DNA of 64,000 bases, taken from assembly GCF_965641715.1 (NCBI RefSeq), contig NZ_OZ282455.1; one strand, given 5' to 3'. This document shows, in pieces, positions 17,908 to 23,143 of this stretch. This stretch comes from Escherichia coli. Its GTDB lineage: Bacteria > Pseudomonadota > Gammaproteobacteria > Enterobacterales > Enterobacteriaceae. The translations under genes and the position numbers were made by a program. The stretch's first letter is position 1; each line of letters begins with the position of its first letter. The notes beneath the pieces are model-generated. The model worked only from the letters and a program-made list of their open reading frames with translations. It searched no databases and had not been told where the DNA came from.

Positions 17908-18140
17908 GACAAAGTCTCCATTTCTGGAATTTAAATCAAACGGAAAGGTTAAAAATTTATTTGCAGGCGATAAGAGCTAACCAGAGGAATTAGCCGTGCG
18001 ATAAAAGGATTGTTGCAGATACGAAAGTCGTTAGAATAGCTGCGGGCGCTTGAGGCTGTATGCCGAAAGCGTTTTGTGGACGGTATACAGCAGAAAGCCC
18101 CTGGAGATTTTTTTATCAATCAACCAAGGGCTCTACTGTA

Positions 18141-18344
18141 ATGCCTAGACAACATTATAGTAGCCCGATAACCGCCGTAAGGCAATGGAGGGGCTATGAT
18201 GCCACAGCGAACGTTTTTAATGATGTTAATCGTCATCTGTGTGACGATTCTGTGTTTTGTCTGGATGGTGAGGGATTCGCTTTGCGTACTCCGGCTCCAG
18301 CAGGGAAACACAGTGCTTGTGGCAACGTTAGCCTACGAAGTTAA
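18141..18344 (+). CDS. pndC: PndC (mok-type overlapping reading frame)
   Basis: Reading frame overlapping pndA and ending inside it, as in hok/mok and pndA/pndC. Confidence 0.45.
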   Translation: MPRQHYSSPITAVRQWRGYDATANVFNDVNRHLCDDSVFCLDGEGFALRTPAPAGKHSACGNVSLRS

Positions 18345-18351
18345 ACGTTAA
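18199..18351 (+). CDS. pndA: Hok-family toxin PndA (50 aa)
   Basis: MPQRTFLMMLIVICVTILCFVWMVRDSLCVLRLQQGNTVLVATLAYEVKR: single TM helix plus conserved DSLC motif of Hok/PndA. Confidence 0.8.
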   Translation: MPQRTFLMMLIVICVTILCFVWMVRDSLCVLRLQQGNTVLVATLAYEVKR

Positions 18352-18360
18352 CGGGCAACA

Positions 18361-18390
18361 CGGCGGCAGGTTTTCTGCCGCCGCTTTGTT
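18361..18390 (+). terminator. terminator hairpin after pndA
   Basis: CGGCGGCAG-GTTTT-CTGCCGCCG hairpin followed by a T-rich stretch. Confidence 0.5.
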
Positions 18391-18422
18391 GCGAAGGCTG
18401 ACCTCATTGCGCCCTTTCTTCT

Positions 18423-18674
18423 TCAATGAAGCGTATCCGGTATTGTTTCATTTCCCCTGAAGCCGATTAGCTCCAGCCGAATGCCTTTGCCATCGGGGGC
18501 CACGTTCTGCATTTCGCAGATACCACGTCGGGTCATGAGTGTGAAGGCTGTCATTGCCAGCATGGCTAACGCGTTTTCCTCGCTTCCGCTGCGTTTCTCG
18601 AGAGCATCGGCAATTTCTTCTATGCTCCCCACCTGAAAGCAAGAGTCGAATTCTTTACTCCACTTTTCTGACAT
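18423..18674 (-). CDS. hypothetical protein (83 aa)
   Basis: ORF only; no family recognised. Confidence 0.35.
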   Translation of the reverse strand: MSEKWSKEFDSCFQVGSIEEIADALEKRSGSEENALAMLAMTAFTLMTRRGICEMQNVAPDGKGIRLELIGFRGNETIPDTLH

Positions 18675-18828
18675 CGGATTTTCTCTCTGTATTTATGGGT
18701 AGTTATCGAACTGAATGTGCCAGTTTTTTCAGGAGACGGCAAAGTTGAGATGATTGGTTCTGATTCAGAGCATGAGTTTCCTCGGTGTGACGGGCATGTC
18801 GGGCGGATTTTGAGAAACAACAGATGTA

Positions 18829-18860
18829 AAAAAACCGACTGGTGAGGTCGGTTTTTTTAC
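18829..18860. terminator. bidirectional rho-independent terminator
   Basis: A7-ACCGACTGGTGAGGTCGGT-T7: hairpin flanked by A-run and T-run. Confidence 0.7.
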
Positions 18861-18890
18861 TGTTCCGTTACAGAGTGGGTGGCCCTGACC

Positions 18891-18914
18891 GGAGGAAATC
18901 TCTTTTCAACTAAC
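18891..18914 (+). repeat. direct repeat copy 1 (GGAGGAAATCTCTTTTCAACTAAC)
   Basis: 24-bp element repeated at 19078-19101 with one mismatch. Confidence 0.7.
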
Positions 18915-19077
18915 GTTCTTATAATAGCGAGCTGTTCATTTGATAGCAACCATCCTTATAATCCGCAGGTTAGCTCTGTCTGGCGACACTTCTGCCGTGA
19001 TATCCATCGGGACTATGGATGCAAGATTTTAAGTCCTGGCTGAACAAACAGGTGGTGCTGTGTTCAGTGCTCTGGCA

Positions 19078-19101
19078 GGAGGAAGTCTCTTTTCAACTAA
19101 C
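19078..19101 (+). repeat. direct repeat copy 2 (GGAGGAAGTCTCTTTTCAACTAAC), in the 5' leader of the small toxin-like ORF
   Basis: As above; lies about 60 bp upstream of the 35-aa ORF; GATTTCCTCC at about 19148-19157 is complementary to the repeat's GGAGGAAATC. Confidence 0.7.
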
Positions 19102-19160
19102 ACTGAAAGTGCCGTTGTGACAGGCAATGTAAGAGTAAGCAACGGTGATTTCCTCCAGTG

Positions 19161-19268
19161 ATGGAGAAGCGGATGATTAATCTGTTAATCATCGTTCTCA
19201 GGGCAGTAGTTGCCGTTGCAAACGCGCTGATTGCTGTTCTGGAACTGATCCGGGAACTTGTCGACTGA
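19161..19268 (+). CDS. 35-aa hydrophobic peptide, DinQ/TisB-like type I toxin candidate
   Basis: MEKRMINLLIIVLRAVVAVANALIAVLELIRELVD: single predicted TM helix resembling DinQ/TisB-type peptides as I remember them; too short for the ORF track; followed by a hairpin. Confidence 0.5.
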   Translation: MEKRMINLLIIVLRAVVAVANALIAVLELIRELVD

Positions 19269-19288
19269 TAAGCCTGGAAACGTAACTA

Positions 19289-19317
19289 AGGGCAGGGAGT
19301 TACCGCTTCCTGCCCTT
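19289..19317. terminator. hairpin between the convergent small toxin-like ORF and orf58
   Basis: AGGGCAGG-(loop)-CCTGCCCT stem-loop. Confidence 0.45.
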
Positions 19318-19332
19318 TAACAAAAAGAGATC

Positions 19333-19509
19333 TCACGTTAAAAATTTGTACCCTTCTTTAACTTCCAGTGCCTGCTCCTTTGACTCAAACATCAGTCTTG
19401 TTTTCCCGGGAACACCCCATGAAATGTATTCAACATCTATCCACCATTTTCCATATTCTTCATATGGCCCGGATATTACTTTTTTGACAAAGGCGTCTAC
19501 CAGATTCAT
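19333..19509 (-). CDS. hypothetical small protein (58 aa from internal Met)
   Basis: MNLVDAFVKK... preceded by AAGGAAAAA RBS; the longer 94-aa track ORF probably over-extends. Confidence 0.35.
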   Translation of the reverse strand: MNLVDAFVKKVISGPYEEYGKWWIDVEYISWGVPGKTRLMFESKEQALEVKEGYKFLT

Positions 19510-19894
19510 TATTTTTTCCTTTTTGTGTTGAAAATAATTAATGCCAGAGCACAGCGAAAATAATGAATGCGCTGGCTGTGATAATTGCGATTTTCTCCCA
19601 TATGATATTTTTCTCATGGGGGATTCTACGGAGATTATTTCTTCGCATTGAGATACCGGTATTCATGTTTTATCTTGGACTTTTGTTTTGTTGTCTGTCT
19701 GGCAGGCTGTTCTGCGCCCGTTTGTGACAAGGTTAGCTTATGGGGTTAAATGGTCACGGACATCATGCGGACGGTTCCCTGTCACATGCCATCTGGTTTT
19801 TTCATTCAAATTGAGAGATATTGCTAAGTTGAGTCGCTTGCGATAGTGGACTCCTGTTTGTAAGTGAGTGCCATTGTTTATTTCATGAAGAGGA

Positions 19895-20110
19895 TTGATT
19901 ATGAGCATGCCTCCTGCGATAGCTAATACTTTCTTGTTTGAAATGATGAAGAGTAAATCAAAAGACGTTACACTTGCTGCGATCTATGCATTAGGTGAAG
20001 GCCGGTGTCAGGCGGAGAACATTACTCGTGAATTACATAGATTGAGTCAAAGTGATGATATGGAAATAAAAATTGCTGCGATTAAAGCACTTGGTCGAAT
20101 TTATCGGTAA
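19895..20110 (+). CDS. hypothetical small protein with HEAT-like repeat motif
   Basis: 71-aa ORF with repeated AA(I)xALG motifs; weak. Confidence 0.3.
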   Translation: MIMSMPPAIANTFLFEMMKSKSKDVTLAAIYALGEGRCQAENITRELHRLSQSDDMEIKIAAIKALGRIYR

Positions 20111-20181
20111 CGGCATAAGTTATCTGTTGTAATGAACAAAAGCCGGCTCATTTGAACCGGCTGTTATGGAGGGAGCTTATC

Positions 20182-20856
20182 TTAAAATACTTCGGCTACA
20201 GGCATGCCTGCAATCTGCTCCCACTCCTTACGCTTCTCCTGAATTAGGCGAGGAAAGTCGACAGGGTAATCATATCCTCTTTCTGCCATTGCATGCATTG
20301 TATCCGCCATCATTTTGGGATGGATGCATCCTGACGGAATTGAGACCATTGGTATATTTATGTATTTTGTATAAATCTCTAGTGTCTTGGCGTCGGTCAC
20401 AGTGCGTGTGAAGTTGTCAATGTCAAAGCCGATAATATCCATTATATTTCCAGGGTAAGCACGAGCATACAGCATAGTGCCTTTTTTGGTATCCACGCCA
20501 AAATAGACGCCCTGAGTAAAAGACAGTCCCTCATATTCTTTGTCAGGTGAATAAAAACCGGTGTTTTTTATCTCCGCGACAATTTTTTTTATTTTGTCTT
20601 TTCTTGAGCTTGCTCGGGAATACATCAATATTGCAGGGGCAATTAGTAAAAACAGACAGACGCAAGTATAAATATAATCTTCTTGCGTCACATATCTTGA
20701 AGATGTAATGGAGAGCACTCCGAAAAGAATAAAAATGGATAACACTGGTATGCTTATGAAATATATAAATCTAAGGGCGTAATATAATGTCCACCAAGCA
20801 GGATATCTATTGATTGTTTTTACCATTTGCATAATAAACCCTCCATAAACACTCAT
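20182..20856 (-). CDS. excA: entry exclusion protein ExcA
   Basis: AT-rich 224-aa membrane-protein ORF immediately downstream of traY, at the R64 exc position. Confidence 0.7.
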
Positions 20857-20905
20857 CGATATTTTAATGCGATTGAGTGTTTATGGCAAGGTTGTTTTAT
20901 TAAAA

Positions 20906-23143
20906 TTATCCTTTTATTCCATCTTTATTATCATCCTTTGTGACATTTTTTAGTCTGTCCTCTCTAACTCCAGGGCTGTGTCTAATATTTCTATTAGAAC
21001 CTGCAAAAATATCTTTTACTGATGAGGTGAGGTTGCCAAGAGTATTTACACCATCTCTACCACCCAAGAAATTGATAACATGGTCAGGAAGATATGCTTG
21101 TAAAGCAAATATTGCAGCTACAGACGTTGTACACATACGGGCGTAAATTAGCAGGAACCCGGCAAGGCTGAATATCCCTGTTAATGATTTTACCTGTACG
21201 TTAACTAGTGCTGCGCCAAACAGTGAGTTTAATATTGTGCCGACGGCAATGATGGCGACAGAGGCAAAAAAGAAACCGAATACCATGAGAGGTGGTCTTA
21301 TCATGCTGTCAATTAAGTATATATATCCGTAAGCTGCTCGACTTCCTCTGTCCTCTGATGTTCCTAGATGTGTTGCTGCCCACAGAGGCCCGGCGGTGCA
21401 TCCTATTAATACGCTTACTATCCAGTTCCCAATGCCTGTCATCCAGAAAATGAATGGTATAAATGGTAGGTAAATTGATAAGGAAAAACCCGCACAAAAC
21501 AACAGGAACAACAAGAAATATATTGGGGGAGCTGCAGCATCCAGCAGAGCAACAAATCCTTTAGGTAATCCAGAGAACAAATTAACAGCCTTTCCGAAAA
21601 TAGAGTTATCACCCATTGTCGCGAGAACTCTGACAGTTGTATATCCTGTCCAGAGAATTTCTGTTGTACCCAATGTATAATCGCCGATGTTTTTCATCTT
21701 AATTAATGGGTTAACTTGGTTGCTGGTTGTTCCTGTTCCTGACCATTCAGTAGCAGCTTGGTTTGTCCATTTTAATATGGTTGGCGCTATACTTTTCATG
21801 ACCACACTTTGTGGGTCTGTGCTATTAGCTGCATTACTTTCATCTTGAGTTGTTATCGTTCCTATCGTTGGAGTATATGTGGAGTTCTGCAATTGAGTCT
21901 TGTATGCCCCCATAACAGCACTAAATAAATCAGTATCGCCAACTTCCCCAAGTGATGACATTGAAGTTACAGCTGGAGCTCGGTCTGCCAGCTCTGCCAG
22001 ACGTTGGTTAGCAGTGGCAAAGGTCTGATACCACGCGCCAAGCGTCACCCATCCATAGGTTGTGAGATAAGACTTGAGAGCTTCTTTCCTGGATTGTTCT
22101 CCGTTATCAATAGGTAATGATTTTTGTACAGCACGTTCATACTCGTCGGCTGCTCTCTGAATCCGTGTCTCGATATCCGGCAATGTTCCGTTGCCAGAAT
22201 TTCTTTTTTCCAGAAATGTTGTCACAAACTCACTGGCAGCGTTGTCCATGTCGCTAATCATATTATCCATGGCTGCACGTTGTGCTGAGATAACACCGCT
22301 GTATTCGTTTTTACTGAAGGGATTAAAGAATTTTCCAATCGTCGATTGATCTGTTGTTCCGTTTCCTTCTACTGACAGGCTGGCTGAACCACAGATACCG
22401 CTGCCATTGGATACCGTGACAGTGTAATTACCACTGGCGGTTTTAGCTGATTCTGTCATCAGTGAAGTCGAGGATTTGACCGTCTGATTAAAATCATTTA
22501 GTCCTGCGTTAACCGCATACTTACACAGTTCCATTTCAAAAATGCCACGCGCTGCTGTTCGTGTGGATGCCTGAACTGGCTGTACAGTCATTGAATAACC
22601 ATTTGCGATATTATCAGCGGCAAGTTGCACCATCACATTGGCGGACCCAACCCCCATTATCGATGCGCCCCATAACATAATGAGCTGAGCGATACTCCAG
22701 CCATTTCCGGTTGGAACGATCATCAGAAAACCTGCAACGACACTCAGTGTGCCGACGATATCGCGTCCGGTGCTGAATACCTGTCCCTGATGCCCCGAAC
22801 GCACAACATGACGGATACCAATGAACATAAACCAGACAACGGCAAGTACGGCGATGATACTGTTGAACGCCCCGAACATGCTTCCGATCAGAGTGGGGGC
22901 GCTGGTTGACAGTGGATTGGTGACTACATCACCGAATATCGTGACCAGCGCCTGACGGGACAGATCGTCAGGATTGGTTGCGGCAGACACAATATCCTGA
23001 TAGGTCACTGAAGCCATTGCCGGCAGTGAGGATATAGCAAGGCCTGCACAGAGTGCGCGAAGTAAAATTTTCACAGTAACTCCGGAATAGAATTGCGTAT
23101 GGGCAAAGGCCACACAGGATTTAATTAAGGGGGATGGCGACAT
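20906..23143 (-). CDS. traY: conjugal transfer integral membrane protein TraY
   Basis: 745-aa polytopic membrane ORF; length matches recalled R64 TraY. Confidence 0.8.
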   Translation of the reverse strand: MSPSPLIKSCVAFAHTQFYSGVTVKILLRALCAGLAISSLPAMASVTYQDIVSAATNPDDLSRQALVTIFGDVVTNPLSTSAPTLIGSMFGAFNSIIAVLAVVWFMFIGIRHVVRSGHQGQVFSTGRDIVGTLSVVAGFLMIVPTGNGWSIAQLIMLWGASIMGVGSANVMVQLAADNIANGYSMTVQPVQASTRTAARGIFEMELCKYAVNAGLNDFNQTVKSSTSLMTESAKTASGNYTVTVSNGSGICGSASLSVEGNGTTDQSTIGKFFNPFSKNEYSGVISAQRAAMDNMISDMDNAASEFVTTFLEKRNSGNGTLPDIETRIQRAADEYERAVQKSLPIDNGEQSRKEALKSYLTTYGWVTLGAWYQTFATANQRLAELADRAPAVTSMSSLGEVGDTDLFSAVMGAYKTQLQNSTYTPTIGTITTQDESNAANSTDPQSVVMKSIAPTILKWTNQAATEWSGTGTTSNQVNPLIKMKNIGDYTLGTTEILWTGYTTVRVLATMGDNSIFGKAVNLFSGLPKGFVALLDAAAPPIYFLLFLLFCAGFSLSIYLPFIPFIFWMTGIGNWIVSVLIGCTAGPLWAATHLGTSEDRGSRAAYGYIYLIDSMIRPPLMVFGFFFASVAIIAVGTILNSLFGAALVNVQVKSLTGIFSLAGFLLIYARMCTTSVAAIFALQAYLPDHVINFLGGRDGVNTLGNLTSSVKDIFAGSNRNIRHSPGVREDRLKNVTKDDNKDGIKG

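Follow-up and report, generated by a model that had tools for sequence, protein, structure and literature searches.

R64-type IncI1 backbone between pnd and excA: a DinQ-like toxin-antitoxin module accompanied by small uncharacterised genes

Introduction

Is the DNA between the pnd addiction locus and the entry-exclusion gene excA of an IncI1 plasmid a cargo of its own, or is it part of the backbone that such plasmids have in common? The question was raised by a stretch of 64,000 nucleotides (nt) of Escherichia coli DNA (contig NZ_OZ282455.1, assembly GCF_965641715.1; this whole stretch is called the window), in which the interval from 18352 to 20181 holds a toxin-like peptide gene and several small open reading frames (ORFs). 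An earlier, sequence-only reading had taken it for an accessory mini-island of unrecognised, plasmid-specific cargo. The analysis presented here indicates instead, with a probability of about 85%, that the interval is ordinary R64-type IncI1 backbone, made up of a known DinQ-like toxin-antitoxin (TA) module, agrB/dqlB, and small uncharacterised genes. It is known backbone, and nothing in it points to a new kind of system. The additions made here are a gene for a 42-amino-acid (aa) peptide, orf42, which is paired with orf58 (in one metagenomic scaffold, with an orf83 homologue), the prediction of a fold resembling the oligonucleotide-binding (OB) type for orf58, and the prophage-moron relatives of a HEAT mini-protein.

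The interval in R64 and other plasmids

To begin with, the comparison with a reference IncI1 plasmid, chosen beforehand as the deciding one, found the interval near-identical and annotated in R64: window positions 18352-20181 differed from it by 4 mismatches in 1830 bases (99.8% identity). The gene order was also identical (pnd, the 83-aa gene, dqlB, the 58-aa gene, HEAT and excA, with four annotated genes between the flanks), and since both sequence and order are kept, the interval is regarded as backbone and not as plasmid-specific cargo. The RefSeq labels of these four genes are, in order, hypothetical protein, 'DinQ-like type I toxin DqlB', hypothetical protein and 'HEAT repeat domain-containing protein'. 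Moreover, a megablast search against the 72,556 plasmids of PLSDB matched the interval in 2093 records, 894 of which covered at least 80% of it, in hosts of the genera Escherichia, Salmonella, Klebsiella and Shigella, among others. At least 80% of the interval was likewise present in 600 of 5426 complete E. coli genomes, where it was nearly always plasmid-borne.

The flanks and the genes around the TA module are as follows (positions in the window):

18044-18351: pnd locus (Hok/Sok-type), immediate neighbour of the interval
18044-18201: sok RNA, left flank (134 bits)
18199-18351: PndA, left flank, adjoining the interval
18423-18674, minus strand: orf83, gene for an 83-aa protein, 'hypothetical protein' in RefSeq
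19333-19509, minus strand: orf58, gene for a 58-aa protein, a member of PHROG 8110
19538-19666, minus strand: orf42, gene for a 42-aa peptide directly upstream of orf58, corresponding to 'Hp28' of plasmid pESBL
19901-20110 (69 aa from ATG) or 19895-20110 (71 aa from TTG), plus strand: HEAT gene
20141-20162: G+C-rich hairpin between HEAT and excA, which are convergent; it resembles a terminator on the minus strand
20182-20682: excA, right flank

Much of what the sequence-only reading had described was borne out. The ORFs lie where it had placed them, on alternating strands and separated by hairpins (18826-18860, 19288-19317 and 20141-20162), the HEAT-like repeat is real, and the flanks are sok RNA and PndA on one side and excA on the other. 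The toxin-like peptide that it had not recognised belongs to a named and experimentally validated family, DqlB/AgrB, and the four other small genes are without known function. Regarding an accessory origin, no integrase or insertion sequence (IS) gene is annotated between pnd and excA, and the mobility signatures expected of an accessory island (integrase, IS, flanking repeats) were absent from the interval borders; the repeats detected were internal only, in the TA module, the HEAT gene and the orf58 leader. The PADLOC models of anti-phage defence gave only weak matches (E of at least 0.005), which reflected HEAT/ARM repeat similarity.

The agrB/dqlB toxin-antitoxin module

The elements of the module, including the 5' untranslated region (UTR) and the Shine-Dalgarno sequence (SD) of the toxin gene, are the following:

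18826-18913, minus strand: AgrB-like antitoxin small RNA (sRNA), Rfam RF02891
18826-18860, minus strand: agrB terminator hairpin, from a consensus scan
18949..18921, minus strand: agrB promoter-like site TTGCTA-17-TATTAT, from a consensus scan
18957-18962, plus strand: TATAAT of dqlB
18969-19320, plus strand: dqlB toxin mRNA, putative at both ends
19069-19101, plus strand: agrB target in the dqlB 5' UTR
19147-19158, plus strand: sequence 3 (anti-SD)
19163-19166, plus strand: dqlB SD, GGAG
19173-19268 (ORF also from 19158), plus strand: dqlB coding sequence, RefSeq name dqlB, for a 31-aa hydrophobic DinQ-like type I toxin
19288-19317, plus strand: dqlB terminator hairpin

The peptide matched the DqlB equivalog model of NCBIfam (NF041473) with 67 bits (cut-off 35, E 9e-19) over residues 1-31 of 31, and the DinQ model with 20.7 bits, below its cut-off of 30. 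Furthermore, the AgrB model RF02891 was matched in full length at 18826-18913 on the minus strand, terminator stem-loop included, with 55.3 bits against a gathering score of 40. The sRNA gene is divergent from dqlB, 260 nt away from its start codon. A 33-nt direct repeat (D1) was found at 18882-18914 and 19069-19101, and the AgrB 5' end is therefore complementary to the dqlB 5' UTR at 29 of 33 positions. The published map of dinQ (PMC5066626) assigns G88-A119 to the target, U167-U178 to sequence 3, G184-G187 to the SD and G195 to the start. The spacing of target, sequence 3, SD and start (19173) in dqlB is equivalent, and the alignment with this map puts the dqlB +1 near 18979-18982, just downstream of the TATAAT at 18957-18962. 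In the minimum free energy (MFE) folding, positions 19079-88 pair with 19147-56, the '2:3' duplex of the dinQ model; for the full-length dqlB RNA only, the 5' end was predicted thermodynamically to pair with the SD region. The predicted folding is consistent, in outline, with a primary dqlB transcript that would be inert.

The dql family was named in 2016. On pOXA-48, DqlB/AgrB was found to be a genuine TA and addiction module, compensatory pairing mutants included, and dqlB was reported in 67.4% of IncI1 plasmids (PMC12365149); the system was also validated on an IncX3 plasmid, pOXA-484 (PMC12317039). For these homologues, the toxicity of DqlB, the rescue by base pairing of AgrB and plasmid stabilisation have all been demonstrated (PMC12365149, PMC12317039), and by analogy the R64-type copy is probably active. 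Moreover, killing by the IncI1 plasmid pESBL continued after the deletion of pnd, for which its authors suspected a second TA system (PMC7602700), and agrB/dqlB would be the obvious candidate.

Two further signals were considered in this region. What looked like another AgrB, scoring 20.8 bits at 18765-18860 of the plus strand, was rejected as being the palindromic terminator. In addition, a LexA-like box has been published for dqlB of the IncI1 plasmid pTF2, at position -119 (ACCTGTTTGTTCAGCCAGGA, heterology index 11.6), and the same sequence was found in the window at 19034-19053. According to the dinQ alignment, this site falls within the putative dqlB 5' UTR, over a predicted stem-loop and not at the promoter, and given this position inside a transcribed region SOS control of dqlB in the window appears doubtful.

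The four small genes around the module

Same-length diverged homologues were found for each of the small ORFs, with ratios of nonsynonymous to synonymous substitution rates (dN/dS) of 0.04-0.20, and on this sequence evidence they are real genes, beyond chance.

The smallest, orf42, has no RefSeq feature in NZ_CP122835 or R64. Its translation, MNTGISMRRNNLRRIPHEKNIIWEKIAIITASAFIIFAVLWH, is basic at the N-terminus and has at the C-terminus a transmembrane segment (IAIITASAFIIFAVLW) whose Kyte-Doolittle mean is 2.79 over 15 residues. The gene occurs in 1407 plasmids, in most of which nothing is annotated beneath the match, and some older records have it as a 'hypothetical protein'. No match was found in phages or in the family libraries. 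One homologue precedes orf58 in the IncK2/Z plasmid p135-2 (L029; …NTVWEKIAIFTAALFLIFAVCWS), and another precedes the orf83 homologue in a metagenomic scaffold (L011; …NSFWERVAIVTAAAFILFAVFWRT). Over the 23 shared codons, the proportion of synonymous differences (pS) was 0.70-0.90, near saturation, against 0.21-0.25 for nonsynonymous ones (pN); the differences fall mostly at third positions, and the alternative +1 frame has a stop in the IncK2/Z copy. Taken together, these three observations make it very probable that orf42 is translated, with an SD that is weak or absent, no good one being visible. A 26-nt tandem duplication (D3) was also observed at the 3' end of the gene, at window positions 19530-19570, as GAAAATAAT[T/G]AATGC repeats. 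Where the duplication is present, the hydrophobic segment is complete. The pESBL-type plasmids lack it (in pESBL itself, 26 nt between two short repeats have been deleted); their segment is cut short, and the stop codon of orf42 overlaps the start codon of orf58 in the form ATGA.

The downstream gene orf58 matched PHROG 8110 with an E of 1.9e-19, residues 1-57 aligning to profile positions 1-58 of 59. Its product starts with MNLVDAFVKK, without an evident signal peptide or lipobox, and a confident structure model predicts a small OB-like beta-barrel, likened to the OB-fold small barrels of eS28, IF1/eIF1A, SSB/PriB and the PAN N-domain. A tblastn search retrieved 18 phage records, and the homologues (38-54% identity) occur in Aeromonas, Pseudomonas, csAssE-Sib (human gut) and Bacteroides phages, within runs of small, mostly unannotated genes where their start overlaps the stop of varied upstream genes. 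Several other proposals for orf58 were discarded. The 94-aa extended form annotated in ColIb-P9 disagrees with the phage homologues, which begin MN(L/I/V/Y), and in pESBL and IncK2/Z the added stretch either lies out of frame or contains stops. A hairpin upstream of the gene that would sequester its start codon (repeat I4) is a product of the 26-nt duplication absent from pESBL and pDJH, and its fold z-score is only -1.66. The sequence matches to RsgI3 and the T5 Llp lipoprotein in the PDB were at best of marginal significance (E 0.0035 over 30 residues; E 0.23-0.37).

On the other side of the module, orf83 appears under accession WP_001291965 in NZ_CP122835 and ColIb-P9, and WP_001291964 in R64 and pESBL (as Hp25). 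Three helices and a three-stranded sheet were predicted for its product, without a match to known folds, and no family match was found in Pfam, NCBIfam, PHROG or PADLOC. The word-indexed search returned close relatives only; the exhaustive phmmer search gave homologues at 48-57% identity and 83-85 aa (P0253, P0255 and P0258, the last called as 64 aa), which have in common a conserved core and an invariant C-terminal His. Two apparent relatives with multiple repeats (P0261 and P0263) were rejected as low-complexity repeat artefacts. The contexts of the diverged homologues are mixed: one, in a chromosome-like contig, adjoins hha, and others lie near a contact-dependent inhibition locus (two-partner-secretion toxin) or near IS elements. 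No AgrB was found near those of loci L012, L013, L025 and L027. A link with Hha/TomB was also rejected, as hha is adjacent in one diverged context only (L012) and orf83 had no Pfam match at all, YbaJ included; the genes beside this L012 homologue gave no family matches.

The metagenomic scaffold mentioned above (L011, 1068 bp) showed the order dqlB <-> agrB -> orf42-like peptide -> orf83 homologue (52% identity). In it, dqlB is partial and on the minus strand, AgrB scores 56.4 bits, and the last gene encodes a signal-peptide protein absent from the window. The dqlB 5' UTR and N-terminal coding region and agrB had about 80-86% nucleotide identity to the window, while orf83 had diverged far more.

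Finally, the HEAT gene encodes two tandem repeats of 33 aa, which correspond to an internal 99-nt direct repeat (D2). Both its homologues and RefSeq use the ATG start (69 aa). HEAT_2 (PF13646) was matched with an E of 2.6e-7, only HEAT-type families being found in Pfam, and the family profile matched the alphaRep HEAT-like repeat proteins with an E of 3e-9; the repeat type suggests an all-helical fold. Prophages of Citrobacter koseri commonly carry homologues at 74% identity, and others at 40-42% were found in Yersinia (prophage context shown for Y. rohdei), with dN/dS values of 0.04-0.20. In each prophage context examined, the copy lies between the lysis cassette and the terminase and runs against the late genes on the other strand, which is the classic position of a moron. 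The nucleotide similarity between the plasmid and prophage copies is limited to 19852-20110, that is, the gene and about 50 nt upstream. The gene was found in prophages only, with no match in the phage collection of sequenced genomes; the genes beside the prophage copies had no family matches, and none with an Hha domain (PF05321) was near them.

Variation across the IncI complex

The region from trbA to traY has been described as very variable among IncI plasmids: finQ inserts between trbA and pnd, and IS609 at R64 nt 75,496, about window position 18695 (PMC8004404), both insertions belonging to other plasmids and not to the window. The slot adjoining excA exists in three states. R64, ColIb-P9 and the window carry HEAT there on the plus strand (1215 records), pESBL and pDJH carry hha on the minus strand (the hha-type junction occurs in 303 records), and in p14263 the slot is empty. 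The breakpoints are shared (window 19651-20109 versus 3253-3554 of L023, which is pESBL, and L021). In pESBL, hha was scored as 'essential for maintenance' by transposon-insertion sequencing (Tn-seq), as was the adjacent Hp28 (PMC4288162).

The toxin gene dqlB may be present, absent or decayed across these plasmids. The ColIb-P9-type arrangement (L024, NC_002122, 8300-9020; also L020, L022 and L019) has, in place of the single agrB and dqlB, three AgrB-like sRNA genes (37.7, 50.7 and 59.4 bits) and a second sok-like element, an orphan (67.5 bits); it lacks a dqlB toxin ORF and was covered to at least 80% in 316 PLSDB plasmids. This toxin-less array of antitoxins might confer cross-immunity to DqlB or Pnd killing by competitor plasmids. 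Other plasmids have three agrB copies and a diverged dqlB. In the IncK2/Z plasmid (L029, 1945-2530), the body of agrB is fused to the dqlB 5' UTR at the common 33-nt repeat. This fusion is a deletion of about 150 nt that held both TA promoters, on account of which the module is probably decayed, the orf42-orf58 pair being intact.

Two observations concern the composition and edges of the interval. The excA gene (20182-20682) is only 74.9% identical to the R64 allele, beside 1.8 kb at 99.8%, which would imply a sharp recombination boundary at the excA 3' end and a different entry-exclusion specificity; the 100%-identical public record is typed IncI-gamma/K1. The G+C content is about 50% in trbA/trbB, drops to 39-46% within the interval and reaches 33-36% at the excA 5' end and the excA-traY junction (traY 3' end), a decrease noted for window positions 19200-21200 that fits a recombination-prone, horizontally exchanged segment. 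The suggestion that cargo can sit at this place is thus true of the IncI complex, given its known variable region and cassette swaps, and not of the window plasmid compared with R64. The genes may be called accessory insofar as they can be dispensed with: in the Tn-seq data of the related plasmid pESBL, the dqlB region and Hp25 (orf83) were non-essential with scores of 1.00, the latter for both maintenance and transfer (PMC4288162). The overall fall of the G+C content across the interval, from about 50% to about 40%, also speaks for the accessory view.

Proposed explanation

In the explanation preferred here, agrB/dqlB would be the functional core of the interval and act as a second post-segregational killing module beside pnd. 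From the two divergently transcribed genes, the single-stranded 5' end of AgrB would pair with the dqlB 5' UTR at 19069-19101 and, by analogy with dinQ, free the anti-SD (19147-58) to close a hairpin on the SD (19163-66). The AgrB-dqlB duplex, on the same analogy, would be a substrate of RNase III, so that the 31-aa membrane peptide DqlB would not be made. Upon plasmid loss, AgrB, presumably short-lived, would no longer be replenished and DqlB would kill the cell. Next to this core, four small genes are under purifying selection (orf83, HEAT and what appears to be an orf42-orf58 pair); they probably have promoters of their own and would be dispensable for conjugation and replication. They may be moron-like cassettes common to phages and prophages that travel with addiction modules, a reading based on the position of HEAT in prophages, the phage gene runs with orf58 homologues and the cassette swaps among IncI plasmids. 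As a best guess, the four products would act on the host or on competing elements as small modulators that work by binding. The target of the HEAT mini-protein would be a protein and that of the OB-like orf58 product nucleic acid or a protein, and orf42 would be a tail-anchored inner-membrane peptide.

Several points weigh against this explanation. In the Tn-seq data of pESBL, Hp28 (orf42) was 'essential for maintenance' with a score of 0.76 and Hp27 (orf58) was ambiguous, with 0.42 (PMC4288162), and plain dispensability leaves both scores unexplained. The synteny of agrB with orf83 in the metagenomic scaffold and of dqlB with orf42-orf58 in IncK2/Z could denote a functional link and not hitch-hiking. 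The ends proposed for the dqlB transcript, like the promoters proposed for the small genes, come from consensus matches and the dinQ analogy. Furthermore, in the MFE fold the partner of the mRNA 5' end is the SD region and not 'sequence 2' as in the dinQ model.

Alternative readings

Of the readings that compete with this one, a plasmid-specific mini-island of novel cargo between the addiction module and entry exclusion would account for a G+C content below that of the trb genes, for the dispensability of the genes in a very variable trbA-traY region with finQ and IS609 insertions, and for the cassette polymorphism among IncI plasmids. It is nevertheless very improbable, as R64 has the interval at 99.8% identity and in the same gene order, hundreds of plasmids of Escherichia, Salmonella, Shigella and Klebsiella carry it, no integrase or IS is annotated between pnd and excA, and one of the 'unknown' genes is dqlB. 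Very improbable, too, is the notion that regulatory or spacer DNA contains the small ORFs by chance and that they code for nothing. Many frameshifted or truncated versions do appear among the database matches, the SD of orf42 is weak or absent and orf83 lacks a family or fold match; against this stand the homologues at 38-57% identity that retain their length in unrelated contexts, synonymous sites near saturation with dN/dS of 0.04-0.20, the confident orf58 model, and the significant HEAT_2 and alphaRep profile matches. Another proposal, in which HEAT stands in functionally for Hha, a small all-helical protein that modulates H-NS-type silencing or the expression of transfer genes, is supported in that both occupy the slot by excA with the same breakpoints (19651-20109) in sister plasmids (1215 vs. 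303 records), both proteins have about 70 aa, and the HEAT fold is presumably all-helical. This is still quite unlikely, since the two have no annotated family in common (HEAT-type only in Pfam for one, Hha in NCBIfam for the other, a comparison of annotations and not of the proteins directly), p14263 shows the slot in a third, empty state, a common slot in a recombination hot spot does not imply a common function, and prophage HEAT copies have no PF05321 gene nearby.

There is somewhat more to be said for orf83 and/or orf42-orf58 as parts of an addiction system, either with orf42 as toxin and its soluble partner as antidote or regulator, or as accessory factors of agrB/dqlB, which is unlikely on the whole. 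The scaffold retains dqlB <-> agrB -> orf42-like -> orf83-like even though its orf83 homologue is only 52% identical, and IncK2/Z retains orf42-orf58 beside dqlB at 77% nucleotide identity; in addition, the size and hydrophobicity of orf42 are like those of small membrane toxins, Hp28 and Hp27 are under-represented for transposon insertions in pESBL, and the genes sit inside a cluster of addiction loci. The insertion bias, however, could be caused by the binding of H-NS to AT-rich DNA. Moreover, agrB-dqlB alone suffices as a TA system and for plasmid stabilisation (PMC12365149, PMC12317039), the dqlB loci of IncX4 and IncX5 lack orf83, orf42 and orf58, and orf83 homologues occur elsewhere without AgrB nearby. 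No orf42-like partner was found upstream of the phage orf58 homologues, the transmembrane segment of the pESBL-type orf42 is truncated, and IncK2/Z retains orf42-orf58 despite the deletion of both TA promoters. A related idea, to which only a small chance is given, is that orf42 and its downstream partner (orf58 in IncI1 and IncK/Z, the orf83 homologue in the scaffold) form a previously unrecognised two-gene module beside type I TA loci. Such a module, of a tail-anchored membrane peptide and a small soluble protein, might be a protein-controlled membrane toxin and a third addiction or exclusion system. If true, it would explain the maintenance scores of Hp28 and Hp27, as well as why orf83 and orf58, unrelated in fold, both adjoin agrB/dqlB.

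Significance

IncI1 plasmids are major carriers of resistance genes of the ESBL (extended-spectrum beta-lactamase) and AmpC types in E. coli and Salmonella, and the adjacency of two RNA-controlled killer modules, pnd and agrB/dqlB, on their backbone bears on plasmid-curing strategies. The presence of agrB/dqlB beside pnd also offers an explanation for the residual post-segregational killing of pESBL after pnd deletion. Furthermore, about a tenth of complete E. coli genomes carry the four small proteins, none of which has a known function.

Comparison with known systems

The closest counterparts of the core are the agrB/dqlB modules of pOXA-48 (IncL) and pOXA-484 (IncX3), which are likewise plasmid-borne, with the same toxin family (NCBIfam DqlB) and antitoxin family (Rfam AgrB), in a divergent non-overlapping pair with about 33-35 nt of complementarity inside the toxin 5' UTR. 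In contrast, the window holds the IncI1 (R64-type) allele, with a single agrB beside pnd, and it is flanked by orf83 and orf42-orf58, which the examined IncX4 and IncX5 loci lack. The chromosomal dinQ/agrA/agrB locus of E. coli K-12 is alike in architecture and in the equivalent spacing of target, sequence 3, SD and start, and the AgrB model is matched in full length, while the peptide of the window is DqlB and not DinQ, and one agrB takes the place of agrA and agrB. As regards the immediate neighbour pnd (Hok/Sok-type), it also sets a small membrane toxin under an antisense RNA for the same purpose; the families are unrelated, however, and Sok/PndB overlaps its target in cis, whereas AgrB would act in trans on a UTR about 150 nt away.

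For the small genes, the resemblance is to phage morons, given the prophage position of HEAT and the phage family of orf58, with short, low-G+C, hairpin-bounded cassettes that are exchanged between elements. Unlike morons, the cassettes of the window are on a conjugative plasmid backbone and highly conserved within IncI1, and their independent promoters are putative. Finally, the HEAT mini-protein has in common with the alphaRep and PBS-lyase-type HEAT-like repeat proteins the repeat signature AAIxALGxxG, and differs from alphaRep in having two repeats (69 aa) and no capping repeats, compared to the 170-499 aa of the matched alphaRep chains.

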